Made by a program: the position numbers and the translations under genes. Source: Marsupella aquatica (taxonomy: Eukaryota > Plantae > Marchantiophyta). From it: a stretch of DNA of 64,000 nucleotides. Location: the NCBI GenBank assembly GCA_973895155.1, contig OZ316894.1, forward strand, positions 557,968 through 621,967, in the 5' to 3' direction. Of this stretch, positions 16,102 through 64,000 are shown piece after piece (position 1 is the first letter of the stretch; each line of letters begins with the position of its first letter). Under the pieces are notes generated by a model, which worked only from the letters and a program-made list of their open reading frames with translations, ran no database searches and had not been told where the DNA came from.

Positions 16102-16143
16102 GGGGGTCTAGTTCCCATGAAGTTCTGCAGGTGCTGGTAGAAG
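16102..16143 (-). mobile_element. 42-bp remnant of a family B LTR (target of A1)
   Basis: AGTTCCCATGAAGTTCTGCAGGTGCTGGTAGAAG matches the minus-strand B LTR at ~41197-41230. Confidence 0.8.
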
Positions 16144-16144
16144 T

Positions 16145-16162
16145 TGGCGCTAGATGGAGGGG
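16145..16162 (+). promoter_or_regulatory. Primer-binding site, tRNA-Asn type (identical to family A)
   Basis: TGGCGCTAGATGGAGGGG. Confidence 0.8.
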
Positions 16163-16377
16163 GCACTCTACGTGTAGTAGAGGGGAGACATGTGCGAGTG
16201 CACCAGGGCGAGGTACACCAGGCCCCATTTCGTTACTAACCATTGCATTTATACGAGTAGAGGCCCGTCACCCGTTCTCAAGCTACTTACTTGAGGAGAT
16301 TGACCAGCGAACAAGAGAGTGCGACCACAACAAGCTCCGAATCCTCAGGCTCGGAGGATTTGCCATCGCCTCGATGA

Positions 16378-22170: not shown

Positions 22171-22231
22171 AGAAGTACCACCATCAAGACGACGACGCCG
22201 ATAGTGATGTTTGCGAGGACGCTTCACAATT

Positions 22232-22244
22232 AAGCAGGGAGCTA
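22232..22244 (+). promoter_or_regulatory. Polypurine tract of family B
   Basis: AAGCAGGGAGCTA immediately before the LTR TG, shortly after the end of integrase. Confidence 0.6.
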
Positions 22245-25200: not shown

Positions 25201-26195
25201 AAGCAAGAGAATGAACCCTAAGTCCAGCTCCTCAAGATGGACAACGACAGACTCCGTAGACAACGGGATGGCCGCTCCCACTCGGACGGCTCTGGCAAGC
25301 GCACCAGGCATTAGCGGAGGGTAGGGATTAGAATAGAACTAGGAGTAGCTAAAATAGGCTATTAGGACAAGTGCCGGCCAGAAGATAGCGGCGCTGACAC
25401 ATTAGCCAGCCTGTGTAGAATAGGTTAGACTAATAGGACAAGCCGTAACCAGCTTAGCAAGGATATAAGTTAGCATAGATTCGGGCACGAGGCCAGGCTG
25501 GTCCTCAACCCTTAGTATTTAGCATCCCCCCGGTAGAGGCATGCAGGGGGGATTTTAGACTCAGAAGTTGGCCATTCGCGGTACGCGTGGGGAGTCCCGA
25601 ACTCGATGAAGTGCCAGAGTGCCAAGGGGAGGATATACGACTAAGCTTGCTGGGCAAGTGTGGAGCCGGGCTCCGTTGTAGTGTATACTCCTTGGCCTTG
25701 GCCCGTTCATTCACGAGGTGTCGGGTCAACCAATCATAAGTGTATGATCATATATGAATGAAATCCTTTCCCCTCAATTCCTTCATGTAAATCGAGATTT
25801 ATGGTTATGTATGAATGCATGTATGAGTCTCGTGTGCAAGTATCAATGTCGGGCCAAACACGTTATGCCAAGCGTGCACGGGGTGTAGGTTACGGGTACG
25901 GGGTTGCGAGCCAGGGTTGAGCACTTGTACTAATGGATCCGGATCGAAGGCGGTAACACGAAGGCTTAGAAGTCCGTAAGCCGGGATTGAACCCTTTTCG
26001 ACTAAGGTACATTCCGGCGACGGAACACAAACCATACCTAGGAGGTGTCCGTACATAACATTAGGCGTACTTAGCGCTAGTTTACGTGAGTTAGGTGTAT
26101 TCTGTGCTTCCCTCCCTGCCCGAACCCTCATGTTTACGAAGGATGTGCCTGTCTAAGCCAAAGCCCGGGTTAAGGCCTAGGCTGACGACGTGACA
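22245..26195 (+). repeat. Family B 3' LTR (3951 bp; divergent subfamily)
   Basis: Same termini as and colinear with the four solo B LTRs; its right flank (GTATG...) is family A LTR sequence. Confidence 0.92.
22696..25314 (+). pseudogene. LTR-B-encoded protein, frameshifted copy
   Basis: ORF pieces 22958-23635, 23412-23828, 23825-24070, 24006-24335, 24251-24784 and 24583-25221 match the 874-aa protein. Confidence 0.88.
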
Positions 26196-31000: not shown

Positions 31001-31265
31001 GCTCCCGGCCACGACAAGAAGAACAGGAGATCAACACGGAAGCCGGAGGAGGAACCAAGACCGGCAAGTGGTGAAGCCGTGTTCACGACAAAGCCAGGAG
31101 AACAGCAGGAGAAGCCGGTAGTCCAAGCCGAAGAGGAGGCGGTGGAGGACTACACCAATGATAACTCCGGCTACGGGTCGGATCATCATGTTCCAGGAGT
31201 AAGGACCTGTGGTCGGTTCATCCCCACGCTCCCAAGAGTAGTCCGAGGAGACCCAAGCCAGCAGA

Positions 31266-34200: not shown

Positions 34201-35272
34201 CAGCAGCTGGAGGAGGCATGTCAGGAGGCAGCAGAGGAGACGGACGCGGCGAGGCGAGAGAACGAATCTCTGCTGGACCAGGTCCAGCTCCTCAAAGCGG
34301 ACAATGACAGGCTTCGAAGGCAGCGGGATGGCCGTTCCCATTCGGGCGGCTCTGGCAAGCGTGCCAGGCATTAGCGGCGGAGTAGGAATAGATTAGGATT
34401 AGGATTGGCTTAGTCAGGCTCTTGGGACAGGCACCTGCCTTAGGTACGGCAGCGCTGCCCTGCTGTCCAGCCTGCGTAGATTAGGATCTTCTAATAAGAC
34501 ACAGCCGTTTTCCGGCCTGACTGTCAGCTTAGTTAGGACCTTGGTCAGCGAATCTTTGGCGGGAGGACACCCCGTTCCTCGGCTCTTAGTATTTAGTGCA
34601 CCCCTCGGTAGAGGCAGGGGGGTTTTTAGTTTCAGAGTCGGACATCCGCGGGACATGCGGGGAGTCCCGACCTCTGGGAATGACAGAGTACCAAGGGGAG
34701 GGGGTAGGACTAAGCTTGCCGGGCGAGTGCGGAGCCGGGCTCCGTTGTAGTGTGCACTCTTGGCCTTGAACCTGTGCATTCCAGGGCTGTCGTGTCAACT
34801 AAGTGTACGCATATGTTCCCTTTGTAGTAAAAATCCTTTCCCATCATTTTTCCTTCGTGTAAATCGAGATTGTATGCATGTGTGCGCATATGTGTGTGGG
34901 TTTCTCGTATATGGGTGGCAGCGCCGGGCCGAACGCACTACCCGAGACATGCACAGGGTGCAGCCTGCGGGTAAGTGGTTGCGAGCACGGGTTGAGGACC
35001 TGTATCATCGAATCCGGATCGAAGGCGGACAGCACGAAGGCTTAGAAGCCCTTAAGCCGGGGTCGATCCTGCTATCAACTAGGGTACGTTCCGGCGGCGG
35101 AACACAAACCATACCTAGGAGGTGTTCGTATTTAGCAGTATGCGCACTTAGCGCTAGTTTACGAGAATAAGGTGCATTACGTGCTTCCCTTCCTGCCCGA
35201 ACCCTCAGATTTACGAGGGATGTGCCCGTCTAAGCTGAAGTCTGAGTTAAGGCCGAAGCCTACGACGTGACA
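31266..35272 (+). mobile_element. Family B solo LTR (4007 bp)
   Basis: TGTGACGCC...CGTGACA; TSD GCAGA at 31261-31265 and 35273-35277. Confidence 0.96.
31732..34374 (+). pseudogene. LTR-B-encoded protein with a single premature stop (CAG>TAG at 31918-31920)
   Basis: ORFs 31732-31920 and 31996-34374 are in frame and nearly identical to 60092-62716. Confidence 0.9.
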
Positions 35273-38097
35273 GCAGAGCAGCCCCGAGTCTCCCCCGCCA
35301 GATGTCGCTCCCCCGAGCTTTGACGGCATAAAACAGACGGCGCAGGAATTTCAGGAGTGAATCAGGGAGGAAGAGGAGGCAGCCCTGGCTAGGGAGAAGG
35401 ATTTACCAGGAGGAGAATGGCCAGAGGACATCAGGCGGCTTGCAGAAAAATGAAGCAGCCCGCCAGCCACAATAGAAGAGATCCGCAAGGCGGCTTGGGA
35501 ACAAAGGCCGCGGTGGATGATGCCGATGACTGCTACTTCCTCCACCTACGCTAAAAATAGAGCCATGGAGTACGGGGAGATGTGTGGAGAGCTGGCGCTC
35601 AGCATCTTTGGGGAGGAGGTGGAGCAGGGACCCTTTTTCCAAAGGGAGATATTGGAGAAGCGCCAATTAGAAGAAGCGGTGGCTTTGGAAAGAAGCAAGA
35701 AGGACGAGGTCATCCGTCGGCTTAGGGAAAGGGAAGCCAAAATCAAGGATCTGAGGGCGGCCAAGAAAGCCCAAGATGAGCTGCGGATTAAGCGGCATGA
35801 GCTAAATATCATGCAGGGCCAGTTGGATACCGCACAGTCAGACAACCGGATTATCGAGAATAAACTGACTCGGACCTTAGATGAGTTGGCCGATGCGATC
35901 AAGGAGCGGGAGAAGTGGAAGCGAGAGCTGAGGAATGCAGAGGAGGCCCACATAACAGCCAACAACCGGGCCATGACGGAGACCCAAAGAAAGGAATGGG
36001 CGTTGAAGGGGGAGCTCGAGAAAATCCGCGGAGCCCTTGAGCAGAAGAAGGCCGAGTTAGGGAAATCCTATCAAGGGATTATTGCGCTATAGCAGGAGCT
36101 TGCGTCCCTGACGGCCAGCTTCAAGGCCGACCTACGGGAGAAGGACAATATGCTCGATCAGACTTACGCCAAGATGAACCAGATGGAGTCTGTCATCATT
36201 GCAGAGCTTGACAAGGAGTTAAGAGCAACCTGGGAGGAGAGAGCTGCATTTAAGAAGGAATTGGAGGAAGCCCATAGGGAGCTGGAGGAAGCCCAAAAAG
36301 AACTGGAGGAGGCGCGCAAGGACCTGGACGAAGTACAGGAGGAGTTGGAGGAAAGCACGCGGAAGCTGGAGAACTTACAGCGGCGAGCCGACAACCAAAC
36401 AGAGCGGCTGAAGAAACAAGCCGCAGTATTTAAATGCTTGGCTTCATCAGGACCAACTCCAATTGGGGCCACCAAGTTACCAGGAGTGGTACTGGCCGAA
36501 GAACAAGCCGCGCCACTTGCACCAGTGCCGGATGTAAGTGGGAAGGGGAAGGGACCAGCTGCCAAACCAGAAAAGAAGAAGAAGAAGAGTCACTTTGCTA
36601 TTTGTGTGTCGCATTAACTTGTGTGAAGAGTGCCCACATCAACTAATAGGTGACGGAAAGTAAGCAAGGGAGTGAGAGTTGGATGTGTCGAGCTGAGAGA
36701 GGTCTTAGCGGCTTAACCAAGCCTATTGGGGATCATTCCGGCGGCGGAATCCAAAAATACCTAACCAGAAGGAGGGGAAGACAAGGGAAGGCCTAGACTA
36801 GGCCAGCTACGTATCTCATGACCCGATGAAGGATCTGTCCAGTATATGTGTGTAAAATGTTAATAGTAGTAGTGGAAGGAAGTTAGCAGCGTCCCATGTC
36901 GCTAAGCCGCAAAAACGGCCTAGCCAAGCGCGAAACCTGCGGGAATCGGCTTGCTGGGGGTTTCTTGGGTTTAGGGAGCCATGGGACGCACCACAGCTTG
37001 CATGAGAGATTGCCCACAAGAAGGCATACTCGAATGTAGGTTTGTTGCTTCAAGTTTTGAGGAGAATGGACTTGTAGGAGATTTTCGAAAGCTTAGAGGA
37101 GATGAGACCTAATCTTGTTGAAGCTTGGGAGTCTTGCATTAGAGATGGCTCACTAAGAAGGCCTACTCTCTTGTAAACTCCTTGACTTGAAGCTTCGAAA
37201 GTAGATTTGGTTGATAGAAGGAAGTATGAGAGAAGGAGACTAGGGTTTTGAAGCTTGGATAGGCTATGGAGGGATTTTGAATGCTTGGTTGATGATTAGA
37301 CTTGGTGATGATTCATTTTTTCTAGGAGGGTCTTGCTTGTGACCCATGTTTTTACTTGGAGGCCATGATGCTACATGTGCCTTCTTGCTATGCATTTAGA
37401 GGAGAGGTATCCTCGTTTTTGAGATGTGTGTTGATGCCTTGCTTTGGCTATGAGTGATGGAATGGTTAGAATGAATGTCTTCATGCCATTTTTGAATGTT
37501 GTTGTGAGCTTGAAGGTGTTTTTGAAAGTAGATGGGTTGAATGAAGGTACTTTCAAAAGTAGCTATTATGCATGAGGGAAGTTGCAAGAGTAAAGAGTGA
37601 AGGCATTTTCGATTGATGGAATGGGTTGTTTGTGGATTATACTTGGTGGTTCTACTAGAGGAAGGGACTAAGGCCAATTCCATGTTTGTTAAGGAGTTTG
37701 TTGACCAACCCTAGGTCAATTTTCGAAAGTAGTTTCCCATGTTTTGAAAGTTGGATGTTTGAATGGTGCATAGAGATGCCTTGCATACCTTTGGATGTCC
37801 CACTTGTCTTAGCCACAACCAAGAGTGACCCTTAACTTGACCACATTGAATGTACACTTGAACTTGTGTACCTTAGAAGGTTGCAAGGGATTGTGTGCAA
37901 TCAAGTGTTGGAAAAGGAATGGTGACCAATTGAATGTTGGGCTTAGACTTGTGAGGATTACATTGGGAAGCTTGAACTAGTTATTTTGATTGTGATTGGA
38001 TATGAGTATGTAAATGGCTTGAGTTTCAAAAGCATGCATGCTTGCTTGCTTGTGATGATGTGGATGAAAGGAAGTCCTTAGGGTCTACTTTATCTTG

Positions 38098-41000
38098 TGT
38101 CACGTCGTAGGCTTCGGCCTTAACTCAGACTTCAGCTTAGACGGGCACATCCCTCGTAAATCTGAGGGTTCGGGCAGGAAGGGAAGCACGTAATGCACCT
38201 TATTCTCGTAAACTAGCGCTAAGTGCGCATACTGCTAAATACGGACACCTCCTAGGTATGGTTTGTGTTCCGCCGCCGGAACGTACCTTAGTCGATAGCA
38301 GGATCGACCCCGGCTTAAGGGCTTCTAAGCCTTCGTGCTGTCCACCTTCAATCCGGATTCGATGATACAGGTCCTCAACCCGTGCTCGCAACCACTTACC
38401 CGCAGGCTGCACCCTGTGCCCGTCTCGGGTAGTGCGTTCGGCCCAGCGCTGCCACCCATATACGAGAAACCCACACACATATGCGCACACATGCATACAA
38501 TCTTGATTTACACGAAGGAAAATGATGGGAAAGGATTTTACTACAAAGGGAACATATGCGTACACTTAGTTGACCCGACAGCCCTGGAATGAACAGGTTC
38601 AAGGCCGAGGGTGCACACTACAACGGAGCCCGGCTCCGCACTCGCCCGGCGAGCTTAGTCCTACCCCCTCCCCTTGGTACTCTTTCATTCCCAGAGGTCG
38701 GGACTCCCCGCATATCCCGCGGATGTCCGACTCTGAAACTAAAAACCCCCCCTCCCTCTACCGAGGGGTGCACTAAATACTAAGAGCCGAGGGACGGGGT
38801 GTCCTCTCGCCGAAGATTCGCTGACTAAGGTCCTAACTAAGCTGACAGTCAGGCCGGAAAACAACTGTGTCTTATTAGAAGATCCTAATCTACGCAGGCT
38901 GGACAGCAGGGCAGCACTGCTGTACCTAAGGCAGGTGCCTGTCCCAAGAGCCTGACTAAGCCAATCCTAATCCTAATCTATTCCTACTCCGCCGCTAATG
39001 CCTGGCACGCTTGCCAGAGCCGCCCGAATGGGAACGGCCATCCCGCTGCCTTCGAAGCCTGTCATTGTCCGCTTTGAGGAGCTGGACCTGGTCCAGCAGA
39101 GATTCGTTCTCTCGCCTCGCCGCGTCCGTCTCCTCTGCTGCCTCCTGACATGCCTCCTCCAGCTGCTGGGCGTCGCTCGTCAGTGTACCCACCAGCTGGT
39201 CCTGCTTCTCGGCCTCGGTTTGGAGCCGCGCCATCTCGGCCTGCAGCGTGGCTATCTCCGCTGTGTCCCGCTGGGCTCGCTCCTCGGCCTCCTCCAGGTC
39301 TTTCTGCCAGGTGACAACTTGTTTCTTCAAACTGTCAATCTGGTTCCGGAGTCGTGTAATCTCGGCCTCGTTCCCAGCTTTGGCCTGTTCGGCTAGGGCG
39401 GTAAGAGCGTGCGCCTTTGCTCACAACTCATCGGCGGCTGCAACCTTGGGTCGTAGTTGCAGAAGCTCAGCCTCTTGAGCCGCCACTTCGTTCTTTAGGT
39501 ACACGGACTCCACCCGGTACCGCTCTATCCTCTGAAGGGCCTCCGACTGGGCCCGACCTGCCTTTACGGCGGCAACCAACTCCTGATTGAAGAAACAGGC
39601 TACCTTCCGGGCCATGAACTCCCCGGTATCCCGGGCAATTTGATGAGAGAAATCTCCCAGAAGCCCGTTCAGAAACGTACCCTGTACGAAGAGTTTCGGG
39701 TGGTCCAAGTTGTGCCTGTCCGGATTTGGGCACGGGCAGACGTCAACACGCGCAGGGGCCGGGGTAGTGACGTCCAGCCCTGGGGACCTAACGTTGGAAG
39801 GGGCTGGAGTGTCCTCCTGCAGCAATGTCCGGTTCTCCGGAATTGCCACCGGTGGGTCCTTGGGAGACCCGGGTTCGGGTAAGACCTCTGCCGTACCAAC
39901 TTCTGTACTTAGCCCGGCTAGTTGGGTCGCATCAACGGTTGCGACGACCGACCCCTCCGGCGCCTCCTCGGTTACGATTACAGCTATTTGTGGAGGTGGG
40001 GTGGGTGAAGCTGGCGTGTCCATTGGACTTCGGGCCTCGGGTTGGGGCCGTCTCTCCAATGCCGGAAAAACCCACCTAGCTGGGACCAGCTTTGTAACGT
40101 TGATGCGGGGAAGGGTTCGTCGATCAAACCGGGCGTACCACTCAAGAATGATTTTGATGTGGCTAGCGAAATACGCCTTCCCGCCAATGTACAGCGTCTT
40201 CCTTCGCCGCTCCATCTCTTCATGGAATTTCTTAGCGAAGTACGATGCCCATTTCCTAGGTTGATAGTTCTCGACCTGGATAACCTGGGCGGCGGAGATC
40301 TCCCCCCGGGGTTCCATCATGTGGAGAGCGTACCTTTGGAACTCCAGCCGCTCAGCTATCTCGGGCATGAGGCAGGTCCTCATCACGAACCCATTGTCTA
40401 CTGCTCCCTCTGAGGGAAAACTTGAAGATTGGTACTTGGCCCCCTTGCCCCTGGGAGCCCGTGATTCGACTCGATGGTCACCTTCGGGTAACCCGAAGAT
40501 CATCTTGAGCCGTTCTTCTGTGAGGGACATATTCCTTCCCCGCAGCCGAGTCTGTTGACGTACGTTGTCATAATTCTTGACGAATTCTGTCATGTCCTCC
40601 CTGTAGTACCTGCAAGTGTTCCAGGGGAGAGAGGTGAGGTGCTCAAATCCCTGAGTCTTCAGGGACACCGCATGCTTGGGATGGAGGATGTTGCTGTGAA
40701 CGTTTTCCCCCATGCGGTGCATCGTCACCTTGGCTACGGCTACCGTGGCCAACGGTAACCCGGATGCAGTGGTGGATTCCTTCCTCTTCTTTCCCCGAGA
40801 CTGACTCGGGGAAGGTGATACTTCCCCATCCTCCCGATCGGGCCTGGGGAGTGCCACTACCGTTGGTAACAGGCCCGGGGCGGCCACGGTCACCATGTTG
40901 TCTGCTGGGGCCGCTCCTGGGGTCAGAGCAGGGGGTGGGGACGATATAGTGTCGGCCCCCCGAGCGCTTGTTCCTCTGGGCCGCCTGGTCAAGGGTGGGG

Positions 41001-42115
41001 TAGCCTCGTCGTCATCGCTAAGATCCACAGCGTTGATGACGGAGCGTACCTGTGCTGGCTGGGTGATAGGTGGTGGGGTTTGGCTAGGCTGCGGCTGAGG
41101 CTGAAGCTGAAGCTGAGCCTGAGGTTGAGGCTGGGGTTGCATGGGCACGGGTACGGGTACGGGCACGGCTGAGTTGGTCATGTTGGTTGATGGCCGAGTT
41201 CCCATGAAGCTCTGCAGGTGCTGGTAGAAGTTCTCCGAAGCGAGTGCGGACGCCCTTGTCGAACGGTTGGTACTGGACTCGCCGTTAATGACAGCCCGAA
41301 CCCGGGCAGGGATGTGGTCGAAGTGATGTCGCTGCAGGTCGATTGTACCCGGGATATTGAAGACCTCGTCCGGAAGCCGAAGCAATGCTTCCCAGAAACC
41401 GATATATTTGTCTCCATTGAAGAAGTACCCAGATACCTCTGCTGGTCGGTAAAGCTCGCTCTGAGACGGGTAGTCAAAGTTAAGGACGTAGTGGTGTCGT
41501 CCTGCTAGGCGGATGGCTCTCTCGTATTCGCATTCGATTTTGTATCGGCGTGGGTTGGCGTGTTTCAATGAATCGGCCAAGTGCCTTCCGGTAGATAGGA
41601 ACTGCGTCCAGAATCGAATGGCCGAGCTGGAGAGGATCGTGTGCGACATTCAGAGGAGATAGTAGTGGCGACCTAGAGAGAACGAGAGAGCTGGGGTCGA
41701 AGCTGGCGCGCGGACTGATGGACTGGTGCACTACAAAGGGTTGGCTCCCCTTTTATACTTTGAGGGCTTGTCGATCCCCGACGTCTCCTCGACGCCCATA
41801 GGCTGAACCGCTCACGCTTGTGGTGTACCGGCCACTCCGCCGGTCTGAGTCAGCGTGCGTCAGTGGCCGCTTCCTTAAGTTCGTTATACGGACCCGAGGG
41901 AGGGGCCCTTCCACGCTCGTAACCCGGGTGTGCGAATAGCGACCCGCCGCCAGTCCGAACCTGAAGTCCCCCTTATTGCCTAATGATGTCCTACCCCTAA
42001 TGATTACCTAAATACTGTCGTTATGCTAATAACAGCGGCCTAAGACCCACCTAACGCGCGTGCCGAGCACAGTTAGACTGAATCACTCATTAACCGCCGT
42101 ACCGGCGGCGTCACA
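38098..42115 (-). mobile_element. Family B solo LTR (4018 bp)
   Basis: B termini on the minus strand; TSD TCTTG at 38093-38097 and 42116-42120. Confidence 0.96.
38995..41649 (-). pseudogene. LTR-B-encoded protein with a single premature stop at 39421-39423
   Basis: 742-aa ORF plus the in-frame C-terminal ORF 38995-39330. Confidence 0.9.
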
Positions 42116-47395: not shown

Positions 47396-50300
47396 TGCAC
47401 AAATATTGAACTTGTTACCGAGATTGTGATGCCTAGCCAGGAATCCCTAGGCCAGTTTAAATGGAAAAAATGAGAAGTGTACCCTGGAAACACATTAGCA
47501 TAGTGACAAAAAACATGGAAAATATAAACAATTAAGGGTGACTATGGAACCCGAGCCGAGGCCAAAAGTAAGGACGTCGGGGGAGGGAACACGATTAGGG
47601 TTAGGGCACGCTAAGTGTCGGCAACTAGGGGTAACCAACGGGAGGGAAGACCAGGGAAGGAGGGGGGTAAGGACCGATCGCAAGGAATGATGGCTCATTT
47701 GCAAGCACGAACTAAGGAGACGGCTACGTGAAGCCAACTACTGTCAACTGCTTAGCCAAGCACTCTGGGCGGGAGCAAATACCGACGATCAACTCAAGGA
47801 GGGTATGAGCAACGTCAATCAAGTGGCACATTTTTGGGGATGCCTGTTCGAACGGGCAACTAAGTACATTGGGACCTACAAAGACGAAGAATCAGAGAGA
47901 GCAGCTTGAGAATGGCATGAGCTCGTTCGACTGTGGGAGCTGCAAAAGTCTGCCTTCTTAGGAGGAGAACTCATCAAGGCTGAATTCCTGTGGACACCTA
48001 CTGGCTACGAGCTAGACGACCTTCTGTTTTGCGAAAATAGAATCGTTGGCATCCGGGAACCATCAACCGCTACAACATACATTGGGAGTTGAAGGGTAGC
48101 ACGGAGGGGTGGACGAAGGCAACCGTGCTAGGAGAAACATCCACGGTAGCCGCTATGAAGAGGAAAGGGAACAACAACAAAGAGGCCACCCCTGCAAAAA
48201 GAACGAGGTCGGCGGCACCAAGGAAGCCAGTTGAGCAGGAGAGCAGGAGGCAGGCAGAAGTAGAGGAGGAGGAGGTCGACCCCATCAAGGCCGTTCCAAC
48301 AAGAGATGACACCTGGAAAGGCTGGGCGGTGACCCTCCCCAAGGAGGTGCAATTACACTTTGCACGTGAAGAGGATGCATGCTTTACGGCTATGCAGACT
48401 CGGAAATACCAGGGCTTCATGGCCGGATCCGGCTTGGAAGCCTTCGTGAAATTACCATGGTTGAAACCGGAGGTGCCGGATTCAGACTTATTAGAATTCG
48501 TGGGATCATGGGATCCCGAGACAAATTCCACAAGGGTGTATGGGAAGGAGTTCTATCTCACTCCCCGGTGATTGCCGAAGCGTTTGGCTTGCCGATGGGC
48601 AATAAGACCAAAGTAGATACTAGGAAGACCTTGCCTGACAAGGAGTTCCGGTCGTTTCCAGGGCCATCAACGAAGAATGGCTTCTTCCGGAACACCTGCA
48701 CCAACTCGCACATTGGAGAGATGATCGATTTCTTGCGGGTGACCATGCATTGCAACTTGCCGAGGCCAGAGATCGGCAAGGCACAGGTTTACCTGGCGGA
48801 GAGGCCAGACCCCAGTCGGGACTACAACGGATACCTCCTCACCCAATTGAAGAAAATCTTGAAGGAGGAACAGCAAGTGATCGGCAAGGGAAGTGTGTTC
48901 CGGCTTGGCTATCACATGCCGCTGTTGTGCCGGTATGCCCAAAGTCGGATCTTTGCCCCGGTACTTCCCCTGCAGGCAAGGGCACCAGAGGAGGTTCCGG
49001 AACAGAGGCCGGTAGCAGAGAAACCCAACCAGTCTGACAGTCCTACGATCGAACAGGTGTTTAGGCCAAGAAAAGAAGACTTGTCGATGCAGCAACCAAG
49101 CATGCAAAATCTGCTGAAATTGCTAGAGAAGGAGAAGAGGACGGCACCGGCAACGGCAACGGCAACGCCACCAATTTAGGACACTACCCCAGAAGTTGGC
49201 ATAAGCCAACTCATGAGGGAAAACCCTTTTACCGGAGCCAAGGAGAGAAGAAGGCCGGAACACGAGCTGGGAGTCCGAATGTATGTAGGAGCCTCGAGTC
49301 CCGAAGCCGAGGGAAAGCAGCCCAAAGCTCCTGGTCGCGACCGGGAGAAGAAGAGATCAGTCGGGAAGCCGGAGGAGGAACCAGTACCCGTGAGCTATGA
49401 GGCCGTGTTCACGGCAAGACCAGGGGAGTAGCGGGAGGAGCCGGTAGTCCAAGCAGTGGAGGAGGCGGTGGAGGACTACGGCAATGATAACTCCGGCTAC
49501 GGATTGGACCATCATGTTCCAGGAGTAAGGACATGTGGCCGGTTCATTCCCACTCTTCCAAGAGTAGTTCGAGGGGACCCCACCCAGCAGAGCAGCCCCG
49601 AGTCTCCCCCACCAGATGTCGCTCCCCCGAGCTTTGACGGCATAAAACAGACGGCACAAGAGTTTCAGGAGCAACTCAGGGAGGAAGAGAAGGCAGCCCT
49701 GGCTAGGGAGAAAGATTTACCAGGGGGAGAATGGCCGGAGCACATCAGGCGGCTTGCAGAAGAACGAAACAGCCCTCCAGCCATGATAGAAGAAATCTGC
49801 AAGACGGCTTGGGAACAAAGGCCGTGATGGTTGATGCCGATGACTTCTACTCACTCCGCCTATGCTAAAGAAAGAGCCATGGAGTACGTGGAGATGTGTG
49901 GGGAAGCGCTCAGCATCTTTGGGGAGGAGTTGGAGCAGGGACCTTTTTTCCAGAGGGAGATGTTAGAAAAACGCCGATTAGAAGAAGCGGTGGCTTTGGA
50001 GAGAAGCAAGAAGGATGAGGTCATCCGACGGGTTAGGGAGAAGGTAGTCGAGGCAGACCAGAGGGCGGCCAAGAAAGCCCAAGATGAGCTGCGAATTAAG
50101 CGGCATGAGCTAAACATCATGCAGGGGCAATTGGATACCGCGCAGTCTGATAATCAGATTATCAAGGATAAACTGACTCAGACCCAAGGAGTGTTGGCCG
50201 ATGCGATCAAGGACAGGGAGAAGTGGAAGCAGGAGCTGAGGGACACAGAGGAGGCCCACATAGCCGCCAACAACCGGGCCATGGCGGAAACCCAGAGAAG

Positions 50301-50993
50301 GGAGAGGGCGTTGAAGGGGGAACTCAAGGATATCTGCGGAGCCCTTGAGCAGAAGGAGGCCGAGTTAGGGAAATCCTATCAGGCGATTATTGTGCTGCAG
50401 TAGGAGCTTGCATCCCTGACGGCCAGCTTCAAGGCCAACCTGCGTGAGAAAGACGACCAGCTCGACCAGACTTATGCCAAGATGAATAAGAAGGAGTCTA
50501 AGGTCATAATAGAGCTCGACAAGGAGCTAAGGGCAACCGAGGAGGAGAGGGCTACCTTAAAAAAGGAATTGGAGGAAGCCCAGAAGGAGCTGGAGGAGGC
50601 GCGCAAGGACCTGGACAAATTGCAGGAGGAGTTGGAGGAAAGCACGTGGAAGATGGAGAACTTACAGCGGCAAGCCGACAACCAAACGAAGCGGCTGAAG
50701 AAACAGGCCGCAATATTTAAGTGCTTGGCTTCCTCAGGTCCAACTCCAATTGGGGCAACCAAGTTTCCAGGAGTAGTACTGGCCAAAGGACAAGCCGAGA
50801 CACTCACACCAGTGCCGTAGGTAAGTGGCAAAGGGAAGGGACCAACTGCCGAAACAGGGAAGAAGAAGAAGCGGAAACCTTCTGGGTCAGGGAGTAACAC
50901 GGCTTCTCAGGCCGGCGTGACTAAGGAGGTAAACCCGGCACCAACCTCAGGCAGGGTCACGGCAGATCCAACTGTCCTACAAGGCAGGGATGG

Positions 50994-53900
50994 TGTGACG
51001 CCGCCGGTACGGCGAGTAATGAATGATTCCGTCTAAACCAGGTTTAGCACGCGCGTTAGGGGTATCTTAGGCCGCTATCATTAGCATAACGACAGTATTT
51101 AGGTAGCCATTATGAGTAGGAAATCATTAGTCAATAAAGGGGATTCATGTTCGGGCTGGCGGCGCGTCGCTATTCGCACGCCCAGGTTGCGATCGTGTAA
51201 TGGGCCCCTTCCCCCCCCCCTCGGGTCCGTATAACAAACTTTGGGAGGCGGCCACTGTCACGCGCTGACTCGGACCGGCGGAGTGGCCGGTACACTGCAA
51301 GCATGAGAGGTTCGGCCTATAAGCAACGAGGAGGCTTTGGGCGATCGACGAGCTCTCAAGGTATAAAAGGGGGCCGATCCTTTGCAAGTGCACCAGTCAT
51401 TCAGTCCACGCGCCAGCTTCAACCCCAGCTCTCTCCCTTCTAGTCATCACTGCTTTCTCCTCTTAATGTCGCACACGATCCTCTCCAGTTCGGCCCTACG
51501 ATTCTGGACGCAGTTCCTGTCTACCAGAAGACACTTGGTCGACTCATTGGAACACGCCAACCCGCGCTGATTCAAAATTGAACGCGAGTACGAGAGAGCC
51601 ATCCGCCTAGCAACACGACACCATTGTATCTTTAACTTTGGCTACCCGTCTCAAAGCGAGCTTTACCGACCGGCAGAGGTAGCAGGGTATTTCTTCAACA
51701 AAGACAAATATATCAGGTTCTGGGAAGCTTTGCTTCGACTTCCGGATGAAGTCTTCAATATCCCGGGCACGATCGACTTGCAACGGCATCACTTTGACCA
51801 CATCCCTGCTCGGGTCCAGGCTAACATCAATAGCGCGTCCAGCACTACCTGTTCGACAAGGCCCTCTATACTTGCTTCGAAGCTACTCTGCCAGCACCTG
51901 CAGAACTTCATGGGAACTAGACCCTCAACCACCGGCGTCGGGCCAGTCGACCCCATACCCGTACCCGCGCCAATGCAGGCTCAGGCTCAGGCTCAGCTTC
52001 AGCCTCAGTCTCAGCTTCAGCCTCAGCCTAGCCAATCCCCACCACCGATCGTCCCGCCAGAGCAAGTGCGCTCCGTCATCAACGCTGTGGACCTTAGCGA
52101 CGACGATGAGGCCACCCCCCCTTTGCTCAGGCGGCCCCGAGGAGCGGCTCCAACAGACAACGCGGTGACCGTGGCCGCCCCGGCACCAATACTAACGGCG
52201 GTGGCATTACCTATACCCGATTGAGAGGATGGGGAGGTGTCACCTTCCCCGAGCCAGTCACGGGGAAAGAAGAGGAAGGAGGCCGCTGCTGCATCCGGGT
52301 TACCCATGGCCACGGTAGCCGCGGCCAAGGTGACAATGCACCGCATGGGGGAAAATGTGCATAAAAACATCCTCCATCCCAAGCATGCGGTGTACCTGAA
52401 AACTCAGGGATTCGAGCACATCGCCTCTCTCCCCTGGAACACTTGCAGGTACTACGGGGATGATATGACGGAATTCGTCAAGAATTATGACGATGCCCGT
52501 CAACATACTCGGCTGCGGGGAAGGAATATGTCCCTCACGGAAGAAAGACTCAAGATGATCTTTGGGTTACCCGAAGGTGACTACCGCGTTGAATCACGGG
52601 CTCCCGGGGGCAAGGGAGCCAAGTACCAATCCTCGGGTTTTCCCTCCGAGGGAGCAGTGGACAACGGGTTCGTGATGAGGACTTGCCTCATCCCCGAGAT
52701 AGCTGAGCGACTGGAGTTCCAACGGTACGCCCTCCACATGATGGAACCCCGGGGTGAGATCTCCGCTGCCCAGGTTATCCAGGTCGAGAACTATCGACCT
52801 AGGAGGTGGGCATCGTACTTCGCTAAGAAATTCCATGAAGAGATGGAGAGGCAAAGAAAGACGTTATACATCGGTGGAAAGGCGTATTTTGCAAGCCACA
52901 TCGAGATCATTCTTGAGTGGTACCCCCGGTTTGATCGACGAACCCTTCCCCGTGTCAACATACCTAAATTGGTCCCAGCTAGGTGGGTTTTCCCGGCCTT
53001 GGAGAGACGGCCCCAACCCGAGGCCCAAAGTCCAACGGCCATGCATGCTTCACCCACCCCACCCCCACAGGTAGCTGTAGCCGTGGCCGAGGAGGTACCG
53101 GATGGGTCGGTAATCGCAGCCATAGATACGATCAACCAGGCCGGGCCAAGTACAGAAGTCGGGACCGTGGAGGCCTTACTCGAGCCCGGGTTTCCTGAAG
53201 ACCCACCGGGGGTTATTCCGGAGGACCGGACGTTGCTGGAGGAGGACATTCCAGCCCCTTCCAACACTACGTCTCCACGGCTGGATGTCACTACCCCGGC
53301 CCCCGCATGTGTTGACGTCTGCCCGTGCCCAAATCCGGACAGGCACAACCTGGACCACCCGGAACTCTTCGTACCAGGGACATTTCTGAACGGGCTTTTG
53401 GGAGATTTCTCTCAACAGATTGCCCGGGATACCGGGGAGTTCATGGCACGGAAGGTAGCCTGTTTTTTCAATCAGGAGTTAGTTGCCGCAGTAAAGGCAG
53501 GTCAGGCCCAGTCAGAGGCCCTTCAGAGAATAGAGCGGTACCGGGTGGAGTCCGTATACTTAAAGGACGAAGTGGCGGCTCAAGAGGCTGAGCTTCTGCA
53601 ACTACGACCCAAGGTTGCAGCCGCCGATGAGTTGTTAGCAAAGGCGCACGCCCTTACCGCCCTAGCCGAACAGGCCAAGGCTGGGAACGAGGCCGAGATT
53701 TCACGGCTCCGGTCCCAGATTGATAGTTTGAAGAATCAAACTGTCATCTGGTAGAAAGACCTGGAGGAGGCCGAAGAACAGGCCCAGCGAGATACTGTGG
53801 AGATAGCCACGCTACAAGCCGAAGTAGCGCGGCTTCAAACTGAAGCCGAGAAGTAGGACCAGTTGGTGGGCAAGCTGACGAGCGATGCCCAGTAGCTGGA

Positions 53901-54941
53901 GGAGGCATGCCAGGAGGCAGCAGAGGAGATGGACGCAGCAAAGCGAGAGAACGAATCTCTGCTAGACCAAGTCCAGCTCCTCAAGTCGGACAACGACAGA
54001 CTTCGCAAGCAGCGGGATGACCGCTCCCACTCGGGCGGCTCTGGCAAGCGTGCCAGACATTAGCGGCAGAGTAGGAATAGCTAAGTCAGGCTATTGGGAC
54101 AGGCACCTGCCTTAGTTACAGCAGCACTACCATGGTGTCCAGCCTGCGTAGATTAGGATCTTCTAATAAGACAGCCATTTTTCGGCCTGACAGTCAGCTT
54201 AGTTAGGACCTCAGTCAGCAAATCTTCGGACGGGAGGCCACCCCGTTCCTCGGCCCTTAGTATTTAGTGCACCCCTCGGTAGAGGCAAGGGGGGGTTTTT
54301 AGTCTCAACTTGGACATCCGCAGTATGTGCGAGGAGTCCCGACCTCTGGGAGTGGAAGAGTATCAAGGGGAGGGGGTAGGACTAAGCTCGTTGGGCGAGT
54401 GCGGAGCCGGGCTCCATTGTAGTATACACCCTCGGCCTTGAACCTGTTCACTCCAGGGCTGTCGGGTCAATCAAGTGTACGCATATGTCCCCTTTGTAGT
54501 AAAATCCTTTCCCACTATTTCCTTCGTGTAAATCGAGATTGTATGCTTGTGCGTGTATGTGTAAGTGTGAATCTCATGTATAGGCGACAACGCCGGGCCG
54601 AACGCACTACCCGAGTCGTGCACGGGGTGCAGCTTGCGGGTAAGTGGTTGCGAGCACGGGTTGAGGACCTGTATCATCGAATCCGGATCGAAGGCGGACA
54701 GCACGAAGGTTTAGAAGCCCTTAAGCCGGGGTCGATCCTGCTATCGACTAAGGTACGTTCCGGCAGCGGAACACAAACCATACCTAGGATGTGTCCGTAT
54801 CTAACAGTAGGCGCACTTAGCGCTAGTTTACATGAATTAGGTGCATTATGTGCTTCCCTCCCTGCCCGAACCCTCATTGTTACTAAGGATGTGCCCGTCT
54901 AAGCCGAAGCCCGAGTTAAGACCGACGCCGACGACGTGACA
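50994..54941 (+). mobile_element. Family B solo LTR (3948 bp, older copy)
   Basis: B termini; TSD GATGG (50989-50993) versus GATGT (54942-54946), one mismatch. Confidence 0.92.
51466..54063 (+). pseudogene. LTR-B-encoded protein with several stops
   Basis: ORFs 51730-52224 and 52237-53754 match the 874-aa protein. Confidence 0.88.
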
Positions 54942-56091
54942 GATGTCAAGGGCGAAGCCGGAATGCTCAGTGATGAGGCCAGTGTACCGAATCCACCACT
55001 AGAGCAGGCCGGGGAAGCCGTAGCCATACCAGAAGCCGTGGCCGATGCTAAGGCCAAAGCCGGACCGAGTCAGGCCGATGGAGAGTTGACTTGGTCCAGA
55101 GCAGGTAATCTGTTAGAGGTCGGGCCTATGGTAGTGGTTGTGGAGGAAGTGTTGGGGGCGTCCATTGAGGATCAGCCACCGCTACCATGATGGTGGTGGG
55201 GGGCCGCTCCTTTTAAGGAGGGCGGACGTGGAGGGAGGAGGCGTGAGTGGGCAGGGCGGGCTCAGATCTCCAAGTTTAGAATTAGGATCAGGACCGGGAA
55301 GCGGCCCTGACACTTAGATTAGTGGGATTGCGGATCCACTGGTAAGAGCAACACTTGTGCTCCTGCCTCACTGTACATAGGTAGATTACAGTTAGGATAG
55401 ATTAGGCTTACGCTGCAAGGAATTGGGCGGATCCACTGCCAGGATAAGTACCTATGCAGCGGAGAGTCCAGGGCCTTCTTCCTTAGCAAGTTTTTAGTGC
55501 ACTAGCAGGGCTGGGATCAAGTAGTAAAAGAAGCTCTCGGTTAGTTATATTGTGACCTTGTGTATATTCATGTTTCCTCATGCCTAAGAGATGAATAGAG
55601 TTGGCCTCACGGCTTAGTTTGCAGATCTTGTGTATGAGAAGTATTGTTTGTATGGCAAGTGCATGGTATAACTCAGTCAGAAGGAGTCATTTTGCTATTT
55701 GTGTGTCGCATTAACTTGTTTGAAGATTGCCCACATCAACCAAGAGAAGGAAGTAAGCAGGGTAGTAAGAGTTGTATGTGTCGAGCTGAGAGAGGTCTTA
55801 GCGGCTTACCCAAGCCAGATGGGGATCATTCCGGCGACGGAATCCAAATATACCTAAAGCAGAGAGGAAGACAAGGGAAGGCCTAGATTAGGCCGGCTAC
55901 GTATCTCATGACCCGATGAAGGATCTGTCCAATATATGTGTGTAAAATGTTAATAGTAGTAAAGAGCAAGTTAGCAGCGTCCCATGCCGCTAAGCCGCGA
56001 AACCGGCCTTGCCGTGAGCTAAACCTGCAGGAATTGGCTTGCGCACGGGGGGTTTCTTGGGTTTAGGGAGCCATGGGACGCACCACATTGT

Positions 56092-59144: not shown

Positions 59145-59983
59145 ATACCAAAGGATCGGCTTACAAGCCAATCATGAGGGCAGAACAAATTGAGGCCCTA
59201 CTAGAAGCCGGAAGAGCACAACGGCCGGACCCGTAGGAAGCAGGAATGCATGAGATGCATGGGAACAATCCAAAGCCGAGTCAAGAAGGGAAGCCGACAA
59301 CCAATTCAAAACCAAGCAGAACGGCAAGGGAACAGTCTGCGAATAACAAGGAAGAGATTAAGTCAAACCACTCAGCTAGTACAGCCGAGATTCCAATTTA
59401 TGGAGGTATGAGACTGGAGAGGCTGGAAGCCGAGCTGGACCCGAATTTGAGGAAGCAGATTAATATGATCCAAGCACGGCAATACCGGAAGCTCGACTTA
59501 GGAGAAGGAAGGGAACTGAACTTGGGACATGACCTCGCACCAGAGCTGGAGAAGGAGATCAGTGAATTACTGATTGAATTTCAGGATGTGTTTGCATGGA
59601 GTCACCAAGACCTGAAGGGAGTAGATGTGACGCCGCCGGTATGGCGGTTAATGAGTGATTCAGTCTAACTGTGCTCGGCACGCGCGTTAGGTGGGTCTTA
59701 GGCCGCTATTATTAGCATAACGGCAGTATTTAGGTAATCATTAGGGGTAGGACATCATTAGGCAATAAGGGGGACTTCAGGTTCGGGCTGGCGGCGGGTC
59801 GCTATTCGCACACCCGGGTTATGAGCATGGAGGGGCCCCTCCCTCGGGTCCGTATAACGAACTTAAGGAAGCGGCCACTGACGCACGCTGACTCAGACCG
59901 GCGGAGTGGCCGGTACACCACAAGCGTGAGCGGTTCAGCCTATGGGCGTCGAGGAGACGTCGGGGATCGACAAGCCCTCAAAG

Positions 59984-59990
59984 TATAAAA
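59984..59990 (+). promoter_or_regulatory. TATA box upstream of the LTR-B ORF
   Basis: TATAAAA(GGGG) ~100 nt before the ATG; conserved at 31624, 51362 and ~41751-41757 (minus strand). Confidence 0.6.
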
Positions 59991-60091
59991 GGGGAGCCAA
60001 CCCTTTGTAGTGCACCAGTCCATCAGTCCGCGCGCCAGCTTCGACCCCAGCTCTCTCGTTCTCTCTAGGTCGCCACTACTATCTCCTCTGA

Positions 60092-62716
60092 ATGTCGCAC
60101 ATGATCCTCTCCAGCTCGGCCATTCGATTTTGGACGCAGTTCCTATCTACCGGAAGGCACTTGGCCGATTCATTGAAACACGCCAACCCGCGCCGATACG
60201 AGATCGAACGCGAATACGAGAGAGCCATCCGCCTAGCAGGACGACACCACTACGTCCTTAACTTTGACTACCCGTCTCAGAGCGAGCTTTACCGACCAGC
60301 TGAGGTATCTGGGTACTTCTTCAACGGAGACAAATATATCGGGTTCTGGGAAGCATTGCTTCGGCTTCCGGACGAGGTCTTCAATATCCCGGGTACAATC
60401 GACCTGCAGCGACATCACTTCGACCACATCCCTGCCCAGGTTCGGGCTGTCATCAACGGCGAGTCCAGTACCAACCGTTCAACAAGGGCGCCCGCACTCG
60501 CTTCGGAGAACTTCTACCAGCACCTGCAGAGCTTCATGGGAACTCGGCCATCAACCAACATGACCAACTCAGCCGGGCCCGTACCCGTGCCCATGCAACC
60601 CCAGCCTCAGCCTCAGCCGCAGCCTAGCCAAACCCCACCACCTATCACCCAGCCAGCACAGGTACGCTCCGTCATCAACGCTGTGGATCTTAGCGATGAC
60701 GACGAGGCTACCCCACCCTTGACCAGGCGGCCCAGAGGAACAAGCGCTCGGGGGGCCGACACTATATCGTCCCCACCCCCTGCTCTGACCCCAGGAGCGG
60801 CCCCAGCAGACAACATGGTGACCGTGGCCGCCCCGGGCCCGTTACCAACCGCAGTGGCACTCCCCAGGCCCGATCGGGAGGATGGGGAAGTATCACCTTC
60901 CCCGAGTCAGTCACGGGGAAAGAAGAGGAAGGAATCCGCCAGTGCATCCGGGTTACCGTTGGCCACGGTAGCCGTAGCCAAGGTAACGATGCATCGCATG
61001 GGGGAAAACGTTCACAGCAACATCCTCCATCCCAAGCATGCGGTGTACCTGAAGACTCAGGGATTTGAGCACCTTGCCTCTCTCCCCTGGAACACTTGCA
61101 GGTACTACGGGGAGGACATGACAGAATTCGTCAAGAATTATGACGACGTACGTCAACAGACTCGGCTGCGGGGAAGGAATATGTCCCTCACAGAAGAACG
61201 GCTCAAGATGATCTTCGGGTTACCCGAAGGTGACCATCGAGTCGAATCACGGGCTCCCGGGGGCAAGGGGGCCAAGTACCAATCTTCAAGTTTTCCCTCA
61301 GAGGGATCAGTAGACAACGGGTTCGTGATGAGGACCTGCCTCATGCCCGAGATAGCTGAGCGGCTGGAGTTCCAGAGGTACGCTCTCCACATGATGGAAC
61401 CCCGGGGGGAGATCTCCGCCGCCCAGGTCATCCAGGTCGAGAACTATCAACCTAGGAAGTGGGCGTCGTACTTCGCTAAGAAATTCCATGAAGAGATGGA
61501 GCGGCGAAGGAAGACGTTGTACATTGGCGGGAAGGCGTATTTCGCTAGCCACATCGAAATCATTCTTGAGTGGTACGCCCGGTTTGATCGACGAACCCTT
61601 CCCCGCATCAACGTTACAAAGCTGGTCCCAGCTAGGTGGGTTTTTCCGGCATTGGAGAGACGGCCCCAACCCGAGGCCCGAAGTCCAGTGGACACGCCAG
61701 CTTCACCCACCCCACCTCCACAAATAGCTGTAATCGTAACCGAGGAGGCGCCGGAGGGGTCGGTCGTCGCAACCGTTGATGCGACCCAACTAGCCGGGCT
61801 AAGTACAGAAGTTGGTACGGCAGAGGTCTTACCCGAACCCGGGTCTCCCAAGGACCCGCCGGTGGCAATTCCGGAGAACCGGACATCGCTGCAGGAGGAT
61901 ACTCCGGCCCCTTCCAACGTTATGTCCCCAGGGCTGGACGTCACTGCCCCGGCCCCTGCGCGTGTTGATGTCTGCCCGTGCCCAAATCCGGACAGGCACA
62001 ACTTGGACCACCCGGAACTCTTCGTACAGGGTACGTTTCTGAACGGGCTTCTGGGAGATTTCTCTCATCAAATTGCCCGGGATACCGGGGAGTTCATGGC
62101 TCGGAAGGTAGCCTGTTTCTTCAATCAGGAGTTGGTTGCCGCCGTAAAGGCAGGGCGGGCCCAGTCGGAGGCCCTTCAGAGGATAGAGCGGTACCGGGTG
62201 GAGTCCGTGTACCTAAAGAACGAAGTGGCGGCTCAAGAGGCTGAGCTTCTGCAACTACGACCCAAGGTTGCAGCCGCCGATGAGTTGTTAGCAAAGGCGT
62301 ACGCTCTTACCGCCCTAGCCGAACAGGCCAAAGCTGGGAACGAGGCCGAGATTACACGACTCCGGAACCAGATTGACAGTTTGAAGAAACAAGCTGTCAC
62401 CTGGCAGAAAGACCTGGAGGAGGCCGAGGAGCGAGCCCAGCGGGACGCGACGGAGATAGCCACGCTGCAGGCCGAGATGGCGCGGCTCCAAACCGAGGCC
62501 GAGAAGCAGGACCAGCTGGCGAGTAAACTGGCGAGCGACGCCCAGCAGCTGGAGGAGGCATGTCAGGAGGCAGCAGAGGAGACGGACGCGGCGAGGCGAG
62601 AGAACGAATCTCTGCTGGACCAGGTCCAGCTCCTCAAAGCGGACAATGACAGGCTTCGAAGGCAGCGGGATGGCCGTTCCCATTCGGGCGGCTCTGGTAA
62701 GCGTGCCAGGCATTAG
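60092..62716 (+). CDS. Intact 874-aa LTR-encoded protein: novel N-terminal domain, Pro/Gln linker, NLS-like RGKKRKE, PMD/plant-transposon-protein-like domain, C-terminal coiled coil
   Basis: Uninterrupted ATG-to-TAG ORF wholly inside a solo LTR; conserved in five copies in the window. Confidence 0.85.
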   Translation: MSHMILSSSAIRFWTQFLSTGRHLADSLKHANPRRYEIEREYERAIRLAGRHHYVLNFDYPSQSELYRPAEVSGYFFNGDKYIGFWEALLRLPDEVFNIPGTIDLQRHHFDHIPAQVRAVINGESSTNRSTRAPALASENFYQHLQSFMGTRPSTNMTNSAGPVPVPMQPQPQPQPQPSQTPPPITQPAQVRSVINAVDLSDDDEATPPLTRRPRGTSARGADTISSPPPALTPGAAPADNMVTVAAPGPLPTAVALPRPDREDGEVSPSPSQSRGKKRKESASASGLPLATVAVAKVTMHRMGENVHSNILHPKHAVYLKTQGFEHLASLPWNTCRYYGEDMTEFVKNYDDVRQQTRLRGRNMSLTEERLKMIFGLPEGDHRVESRAPGGKGAKYQSSSFPSEGSVDNGFVMRTCLMPEIAERLEFQRYALHMMEPRGEISAAQVIQVENYQPRKWASYFAKKFHEEMERRRKTLYIGGKAYFASHIEIILEWYARFDRRTLPRINVTKLVPARWVFPALERRPQPEARSPVDTPASPTPPPQIAVIVTEEAPEGSVVATVDATQLAGLSTEVGTAEVLPEPGSPKDPPVAIPENRTSLQEDTPAPSNVMSPGLDVTAPAPARVDVCPCPNPDRHNLDHPELFVQGTFLNGLLGDFSHQIARDTGEFMARKVACFFNQELVAAVKAGRAQSEALQRIERYRVESVYLKNEVAAQEAELLQLRPKVAAADELLAKAYALTALAEQAKAGNEAEITRLRNQIDSLKKQAVTWQKDLEEAEERAQRDATEIATLQAEMARLQTEAEKQDQLASKLASDAQQLEEACQEAAEETDAARRENESLLDQVQLLKADNDRLRRQRDGRSHSGGSGKRARH

Positions 62717-64000
62717 CGGCGGAGTAGGAATAGATTAGGATTAGGATTGGCTTAGTCAGGCTCTTGGGACAGGCACCTGCCTTAGGTACAGCAGCGCTGC
62801 CCTGCTGTCCAGCCTGCGTAGATTAGGATCTTCTAATAAGACACAGCCGTTTTCCGGCCTGACTGTCAGCTTAGTTAGGACCTTAGTCAGCGAATCTTTG
62901 GCGAGAGGGCACCCCGTTCCTCGGCTCTTAGTATTTAGTGCACCCCTCGGTAGAGGCAAGGGGGGGGTTTTTAGTTTCAGAGTCGGACATCCGCGGGACA
63001 TGCGGGGAGTCCCGACCTCTGGGAATGACAGAGTACCAAGGGGAGGGGGTAGGACTAAGCTCGCCGGGCGAGTGCGGAGCCGGGCTCCGTTGTAGTGTGC
63101 ACCCTTGGCCTTGAACCTGTGCATTCCAGGGCTGTCGTGTCAACTAAGTGTACGCATATGTTCCCTTTGTAGTAAAATCCTTTCCCATCATTTTTCCTTC
63201 GTGTAAATCGAGATTGTATGCATGTGTGCGCATATGTGTGTGGGTTTCTCGTATATGGGTGCAGCGCTGGGCCGAACACACTACCCGAGACGGGCACAGG
63301 GTGCAGCCTGCGGGTAAGTGGTTGCGAGCACGGGTTGAGGACCTGTATCATCGAATCCGGATCGAAGGCGGACAGCACGAAGGCTTAGAAGCCCTTAAGC
63401 CGGGGTCGATCCTGCTATCGACTAAGGTACGTTCCGGCAGCGGAACACAAACCATACCTAGGAGGTGTCCGTATTTAGCAGTATGCGCACTTAGCGCTAG
63501 TTTACGAGAATAAGGTGCATTACGTGCTTCCCTTCCTGCCCGAACCCTCAGATTTACGAGGGATGTGCCCGTCTAAGCTGAAGTCTGAGTTAAGGCCGAA
63601 GCCTACGACGTGACAGTAGACCCAAAATTAGGAGAACATCGAATTGACCTCATGTTAGGGGCCAAATCATTTTGACAACCAATTCGAGGGATGAACCCTA
63701 AGTATTCCCTGATAGTCAAAACTGAAATCGACAAGCTAGTGGAAGCCGGATTCATCACTCCAGCCCTACACTTAGACTGGGTGTCTCCAATTGTGATAGT
63801 TCCCAAGAAAGCTGGTAAACCCAAGATCCGGGTTTGTCAGGATTACAAGAAGTTAAATGAGGCTACGTTAAAAGACCATTTTCCTTTACCCTTTACTGAT
63901 ATGGTGCTAGACATGGTAGCCAGTCATGAACTATACTCATTCATGGATGGGTACTCTGGTTATAACCAAATCAGGATTAGGCACGACGACCAAATCAAGA

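Follow-up and report, generated by a model that had tools for sequence, protein, structure and literature searches.

The window analysed in this study, a 64,000-nt stretch of Marsupella aquatica (Marchantiophyta; GenBank assembly GCA_973895155.1, contig OZ316894.1, positions 557,968 to 621,967 of the forward strand), is a pile of nested Ty3/gypsy elements. Near its end, a solo long terminal repeat (LTR) of a family termed B (59626..63615, +; 3,990 bp) is inserted in the reverse transcriptase (RT) region of a family A element and carries an intact accessory open reading frame (ORF) of 874 aa without stops (P0001; 60092..62716, +). The ORF occupies LTR positions 467-3091 of 3,990, i.e. 66% of the B unit, and lies wholly within the LTR. 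The unit starts with TGTGACG, ends with CGTGACA and is flanked by the target-site duplication (TSD) GTAGA at 59621-59625 and 63616-63620. A candidate TATA box, TATAAAA (59984..59990, +), is located ~100 nt upstream of the ORF start, at about LTR position 360, and similar boxes are present in the B copies at 50994 and 22245; this putative signal is compatible with either a promoter internal to U3 or the main promoter of the element. Behind the stop codon, the non-coding 3' part of the LTR (62717..63615, +) contains a TTAG-rich cluster, and its last 400 nt are homologous to an ORF-less LTR family, C.

Four further B copies were found in the window. Three are solo LTRs, located at 31266..35272 (+; TSD GCAGA/GCAGA), 38098..42115 (-; TSD CAAGA/CAAGA) and 50994..54941 (+; TSD GATGG/GATGT, 4/5 matching). 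The 31266 and 38098 copies (97-99% identical) are free of frameshifts and have a single stop each, at codons 63 and 733; the 50994 copy belongs to an intermediate subfamily with five stops and no frameshift. The fourth copy (22245..26195, +) represents an older subfamily with a decayed ORF (7 stops and ~10 non-triplet indels); it has no TSD and forms the 3' LTR of element G, the internal region of which (16145..22244, +) comprises a motif like a primer-binding site (PBS) at 16145, a decayed gag-pol and a polypurine tract (PPT)/junction motif at 22214-22244. All five copies have TG...CA ends with short inverted termini (6/7 complementary), and the TSDs of the four solo copies are perfect in three and 4/5 matching in one. 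The junction at 22214-22245 is in register with the PPT/LTR junctions of the metagenomic relatives L004 and L008, in which the LTR start is clear, and of five other elements. The preliminary description of this locus had read the unit as a true LTR with TG...CA ends and 5-bp TSDs that follows integrase and the PPT at 22245, and had reported that about two thirds of it is one sense-strand ORF, intact at 59626 and with one stop in two other copies; all of this was borne out. Contigs of public sequencing runs span the empty site of the 31266 copy, contain both flanks of the 38098 copy and lack four deletions of the 22245 copy, which look private to that copy. Summed contig depth, which is not a copy number, was high on the young B copies. 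In addition, the PBS of element G is directly abutted by an inverted segment of 44 nt from the region of the B ORF (16102-16145), where the end of a 5' LTR would be expected; the 3' LTR of G itself is not the closest match of this rearranged segment.

The ORF is a gene under purifying selection. The ratio of nonsynonymous to synonymous substitution rates (dN/dS) was 0.22-0.30 between B subfamilies, with bootstrap intervals within 0.17-0.37 for the between-subfamily pairs, and 0.08-0.20 between subfamilies within the protein's core (aa 291-520). Differences were concentrated at third codon positions (10/8/23% by position), and the indels in the three younger comparisons were all in frame (4/4). 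Shifted sense frames and non-coding LTR sequence yielded dN/dS values of 1.06-1.59 and 0.71-1.05, respectively. The antisense frame that shares third positions with the coding frame gave 0.29-0.37 but contained 8-31 stops per comparison and was rejected as a candidate.

The encoded protein begins with a helical N-terminal domain, which is connected to the core by a proline-rich linker containing a basic stretch; behind the core come another linker, a coiled coil and, finally, a basic tail. The N-terminal domain (~aa 5-121; 60104..60454, +) is common to family A and the liverwort homologs, and its model (pLDDT, predicted local distance difference test, 81; 8 sequences) showed no fold match (Foldseek best E 4.2; VIA best Z 5.3). 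The basic stretch RGKKRKE (aa 275-281; 60914..60934, +) resembles a nuclear localisation signal (NLS) in its sequence. The coiled coil (~aa 695-860; 62174..62671, +) is predicted, with weak coiled-coil-type Pfam matches below the cut-off, and is conserved in the relative P0043. This relative, of 906 aa, shares the architecture across its full length and has RKRK at the NLS-like position and GKRAR at the C-terminus. A full HMMER search of 1.84 billion representatives retrieved 41 relatives; among the 10 clusters looked up, four were proteins of the liverwort Calypogeia fissa and the rest were unnamed or hypothetical. Neither P0001 nor longer versions of the core alignment obtained a match in word-based protein searches.

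For the core domain (~aa 291-511; 60962..61624, +), a VANC21-like (DUF1985/PMD-type) fold is predicted. The core model, built on a 38-sequence alignment, reached a pLDDT of 89 and a predicted template modelling score (pTM) of 0.84. In the Foldseek search of the PDB, the top match was the VANC21-DNA structure 9LNJ (E 9e-3, probability 0.99, template modelling (TM) score 0.52), and the runner-up had an E value of 1.2 and a TM score of 0.14. Independent all-against-all structure alignment (VIA) aligned 200 residues of the core with VANC21 at Z 8.3 and a root-mean-square deviation of 4.2; VANC21 was the sole chain with Z of at least 5 among 48,161, the next reaching 2.7, and the match spans most of the core. 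R387, R424, R429 and R438 are conserved basic residues. No part of P0001 was named by Pfam, and the protein itself had no DUF1985 profile match. The language-model neighbours Transposase_32, ATHILA and DUF1985 (scores 0.81-0.84) point the same way as the fold but serve as a lead only; searching PDB sequences with the core profile yielded coiled-coil matches only, and nothing in a viral fold library matched at E<=0.001. Judging from the predicted structure, it is likely that the core belongs to the VANC/PMD superfamily; the protein probably acts like a VANC/PMD chromatin factor, yet it is not a VANC by family tests.

The in-LTR accessory gene is not special to family B; it is shared with family A and with a sister clade. 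Two A LTRs in the window lead into a PBS-like motif and gag-pol. One of these 5' LTRs (47425..56087, +; ~4.7 kb without its B insert) contains a broken homologous ORF of ~1,140 codons (47805-55190), and the other (8685..16101, -) is interrupted by an LTR of family C. A solo A LTR (29100..36995, +; TSD GCTTG) also carries the homologous ORF, and has been altered by the insertion of a B copy and by an internal deletion. The A and B ORFs are 28% identical in the core (E 6e-19), and the N-terminal domains also align. The dN/dS of the A ORF (0.13-0.37) is near that of A gag and pol (0.16-0.19). At the C-terminus of one A ORF (window 9715-9985, -), an 18-nt unit encoding AVADAE has been expanded in frame ~14 times. 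The pol domains are ordered RT, RNase H, integrase, and no chromodomain match was obtained on the integrase fragments scanned; the A pol is closest to proteins of Calypogeia (66-68%) and Riccia, an affinity that by itself indicates a liverwort or another non-seed plant related to it as the probable host. Element G, which ends in a B LTR, has the same PBS motif as family A. The PBS reads TGGCGCTAGATGG in families A and B (window 16145, 56092, 8680) and TGGCGCCGCTGCC in L001, L002 and L004, and this difference within the group implies a switch of primer tRNA.

The C copy (window 12674-15106, -) is a 2.4-kb solo LTR with TSD GCTTC, B-like ends and a tandem TTAG-rich array near its 5' end. It is homologous to the last 400 nt of B (z 28), and no trace of the accessory ORF was detected in it by profile search. 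The LTRs of families A, B and C share a hairpin, TTCCG-N4-CGGAA, ~170-330 nt from the 3' end (63431..63446, +, in the 59626 copy; further sites at 54757, 26011, 55828, 36735 and 13006), followed by ATACCTA. One closing pair has changed on both sides (G-C/A-U), and a second helix is predicted; the hairpin is probably an RNA element of R/U5.

Relatives were collected in a pol-based scan, which yielded 62 metagenomic loci. Four match the core profile and most others are too short to judge; L001, L002, L005 and L016 were added by reading the 3' regions of the loci. L004 is a whole element assembled as a circle, with a 3' LTR of ~1 kb. In L004 and L008, pol and the 3' LTR enclose a homolog of the accessory gene (hhalign 96%; E 5e-9 and 9e-10), which is flanked by a degenerate PPT-like motif upstream and the true junction downstream. 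In L001, L002, L005, L007 and L016, an intact junction directly follows pol and the ORF starts ~510-770 nt further on. The 5' LTRs of L001 and L002 end in TCCCACA before the PBS, and the post-pol junction opens with TGTGGGA, the inverted-repeat match; these termini place the ORF start within the LTR, 660 and 514 nt inside, respectively. No second junction was found in the 1.1 kb past the L007 ORF or in the last 1.4 kb of the L001 5' LTR, two segments that are weakly similar to each other (z 4.9). The sister-clade ORFs (L001 group) are 36-57% identical among themselves. In the RT tree, which excludes L011, L016 and a short plus-strand A fragment and holds no labelled REXdb references, A, G, L001, L002, L005, L007 and two unscored Calypogeia rows form one clade (97/90), that of the in-LTR elements, which is sister to the L004 group, with L008 outside.

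Non-coding LTR DNA was also inspected for candidate target motifs. An excess of TTAG, confined to the sense strand, is present in the non-coding sequence of the A, B and C LTRs (p 0.003-0.04). The 10-mer YAGTATTTAG occurs twice in each of the five B copies and resembles the VANC21 motif YAGTATTAY; as chance allows for two occurrences of a word like this, it is regarded as a lead only. Tandem duplications of ~250-280 bp, rich in TCCGGA, are located in the 3' part of the sister-clade LTRs (L001 180-677 and L007 5440-5843), and possibly represent target arrays.

The B unit might instead be no LTR but an independent mobile unit, or part of the interior of an element whose short LTRs went unseen, and have come to lie behind an integrase by chance. 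The window holds no B element with both LTRs, none of its B copies leads into a PBS, and the sequence upstream of the PBS of element G is a B fragment in inverted orientation instead of the end of an LTR. No joint between a B end and a PBS was among those listed from contigs of four public runs over 16001-36000 and 38030-38230, in which loose contig ends at the B LTR end were mixed (agreement 0.5-0.57), and the pattern of a B end plus PBS had no match in metagenome contigs. Against such an origin, the 22245 junction falls exactly into register with the starts of true LTRs, B has no internal direct repeat, L001 and L002 have matching LTR termini, and family A displays both LTR-PBS-gag and a solo copy bearing the homologous gene. 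The layout of family A closes much of the gap left by the missing B-PBS junction. We consider the separate-unit explanation very improbable. The B unit represents the LTR of a Ty3/gypsy element of the non-chromovirus type; that this LTR bears a gene under selection can be stated with high confidence.

The simplest reading of the relatives is a single capture of the gene from an internal position, and there is a reasonable likelihood that a PPT shift was the route. The ancestral gene would have lain between pol and the 3' LTR with a PPT-like motif on either side, the layout of L004 and L008; a shift of plus-strand priming to the upstream motif would then have joined promoter and gene to the LTR, probably in U3, and the gene would have been copied into both LTRs and retained by every solo LTR. 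Each LTR would most likely form a transcription unit comprising the TATA box at 59984, the ORF and a 0.9-kb tail. The product would enter the nucleus through its basic stretches, form oligomers by means of the coiled coil and bind motifs of the LTR sequence-specifically, thereby lowering DNA methylation or trimethylation of histone H3 lysine 27 (H3K27me3) on family members in trans and keeping family promoters open, possibly from solo LTRs too. Precedents exist in the cited parts of the literature: VANC binds short motifs in its own element and strips DNA methylation (PMC5735166), and PMD-C proteins, which resemble VANC, oppose H3K27me3 at DNA motifs (10.1101/2024.09.27.615353). Taken as a whole, the explanation that a product with a predicted VANC/PMD-type fold binds its own LTR DNA and holds off host silencing is slightly favoured, and for the anti-silencing role by itself the chances appear evenly balanced. 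The preliminary description had taken the ORF for an accessory gene, as supported by the homologs kept internally in L004 and L008, and had pointed to subfamily dN/dS and structure searches as checks; the ratio is not near 1, and the modelled core matches VANC21 alone. Its anti-silencing guess gains from that predicted match, whereas the fold by itself shows no function.

Several observations weigh against this explanation. The structural scores are moderate, with a Foldseek E value no better than 9e-3 and a Z of 8.3 that barely exceeds the level which VIA calls common, and the core and VANC21 are 8-10% identical. DUF1985, PMD (PF10536), ATHILA and Transposase_32 profiles matched none of the 38 family members at E<=0.05, and the only profile match, to Transposase_32 in the L008 relative, is weak (E 2.5e-4; 21 bits vs a cut-off of 45). 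A common fold is no proof of function, and the cited part of PMC5418596 places the same fold, in MAIL1/MAIN, in host silencing. Only one of the five B copies in the window is intact, and none of the A copies. A VANC-style tandem array is not evident in the non-coding B LTR, where the top 7- and 8-mers are at the 95% level of shuffled sequence, and the TTAG excess was identified post hoc. With regard to origin, the sister-clade ORFs link weakly to the B core (hhalign 86%, 61%, 21%), the tree holds only two internal-ORF rows and its label shuffle was not significant (85/500), and a relic PPT was not detected downstream of the ORF in the B LTR (local alignment z -1 to 1.8). The upstream PPT-like motifs of L004 and L008 could be relics of a former LTR start, and change in the opposite direction, from LTR to internal, is a possible alternative. 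The idea that the 5' and post-ORF non-coding parts of the B LTR are mutual duplicates found no support (local alignment z -1 to 1.8).

Two other roles can be envisaged for the protein. With the same fold, it could be an integration-targeting or pre-integration-complex factor that, through binding to LTR complementary DNA or heterochromatin, directs insertion towards other elements. The four solo B copies all lie inside other repeats, the scanned integrase fragments lack a chromodomain match, and nuclear accessory roles have been proposed for plant extra ORFs (PMC7264820, cited in part); against these points, repeats that pile up are expected to be nested in any case, and the sole relative with a solved structure is an anti-silencing protein. 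We regard targeting as unlikely. The second possibility concerns the transcript. If the TATA box at LTR position 360 were the only promoter, the ORF would be the first cistron in a very long R, a layout like that of Ogre ORF1, and the protein would act on element RNA or the particle. A TATA box precedes the ORF in B and in L005 and L016, no second promoter has been demonstrated, and TTAG (UUAG) enrichment confined to the sense strand suits a signal at the RNA level. Such an arrangement requires a 3-kb R, read-through of 5' polyadenylation and gag as a far downstream cistron; moreover, relatives hold the gene 3' of pol, pointing to U3, and the fold match is to a DNA-bound protein. This reading appears improbable.

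Beyond these families, two ORFs of another element (window 42486-44572, -) showed a weak integrase C-terminal match and a weak steryl acetyl hydrolase match (E 0.003, below the cut-off). An AT-richer stretch contains short tandem arrays at 44925-45261 and 46952-47394 (78-bp unit; degenerate array).

Reduction to a solo LTR is seen as the means by which hosts disarm LTR elements. With a full accessory gene retained in the LTR, this would be turned round; if the anti-silencing explanation is true, leftover solo LTRs are likely to be self-contained genes that aid the family's escape from silencing. What the extra ORFs of plant elements do is named as an open question in the cited portion of PMC7264820; anti-silencing of a sequence-specific kind is known in VANDAL DNA transposons (PMC5735166, in part). 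The present locus offers one intact, recently inserted ORF with a predicted VANC21-like fold and probable target DNA within the same 4 kb, thereby making the question directly testable, and the relatives show a plausible route by which an LTR border may move and capture a gene. VANC and MAIN are structurally homologous, and the part of PMC13547354 drawn on calls VANC dicot-specific and derived from a MAIN-like gene; PMD-A domains are gypsy-encoded, with their ancestry left open in the cited part of PMC5418596. Our finding bears on whether the VANC/PMD fold originated in transposons or hosts, a point left open in that same part. Speculatively, a whole clade of gypsy elements in non-seed plants may have moved a VANC-like, sequence-specific anti-silencing gene into the LTR via a PPT switch, with every solo LTR that recombination in the host leaves behind remaining an expressible trans-acting gene; the VANC/PMD fold would then have retrotransposon roots in early land plants and not only an origin by capture of a MAIN-like gene in dicots. 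We hold this broader view tentatively, as less than an even chance.

Among known systems, MMTV (mouse mammary tumour virus) sag and HIV (human immunodeficiency virus) nef are retroviral ORFs of the LTR/U3. The B gene is like them in that coding sequence lies within the LTR and would be duplicated at both ends; unlike them, it shows no homology (no viral fold match), encodes 874 aa in a 4-kb LTR, and is only probably placed in U3. VANC21 of Arabidopsis VANDAL21 (MuDR; PDB 9LNJ/9LNK; DUF1985) is similar in the predicted core fold and as a transposon-encoded accessory protein with a coiled coil, which is modelled for VANC21 in the cited part of PMC13547354. In contrast to VANC21, the B protein is encoded in a gypsy LTR and not in a VANDAL/MuDR DNA transposon, has an extra N-terminal domain, is 8-10% identical, lacks a DUF1985 match and has no tandem target array found; its named relatives are liverwort proteins, unlike the VANC called dicot-specific in the portion of the source cited above. 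Very long LTRs combined with an extra ORF are also known from rice Retrosat2, RIRE3 and RIRE8 (LTRs >3 kb; ORF0), where, unlike the B ORF, ORF0 is upstream of gag-pol and not in the LTR in the cited part of PMC3485330. Literature screened by title and abstract held no description of a gene inside a plant retrotransposon LTR; REXdb tables could hold such cases. A further parallel is offered by the extra ORFs of Ogre/Tat/Athila (OTA) elements (PMD-A, Transposase_28, Athila ORF-1), likewise accessory ORFs of non-chromovirus gypsy elements, and L004 and L008 have the classic OTA position, in sense between pol and the 3' LTR. The cited parts of PMC7264820, PMC6317226 and PMC3485330 describe OTA extra ORFs as internal, and those of PMC10508981, PMC13468544, PMC12844716 and PMC12885004 also place extra ORFs in the internal region, whereas the B ORF lies wholly in the LTR and is kept by solo LTRs. 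The B core and the OTA extra ORFs probably belong to the same fold superfamily.

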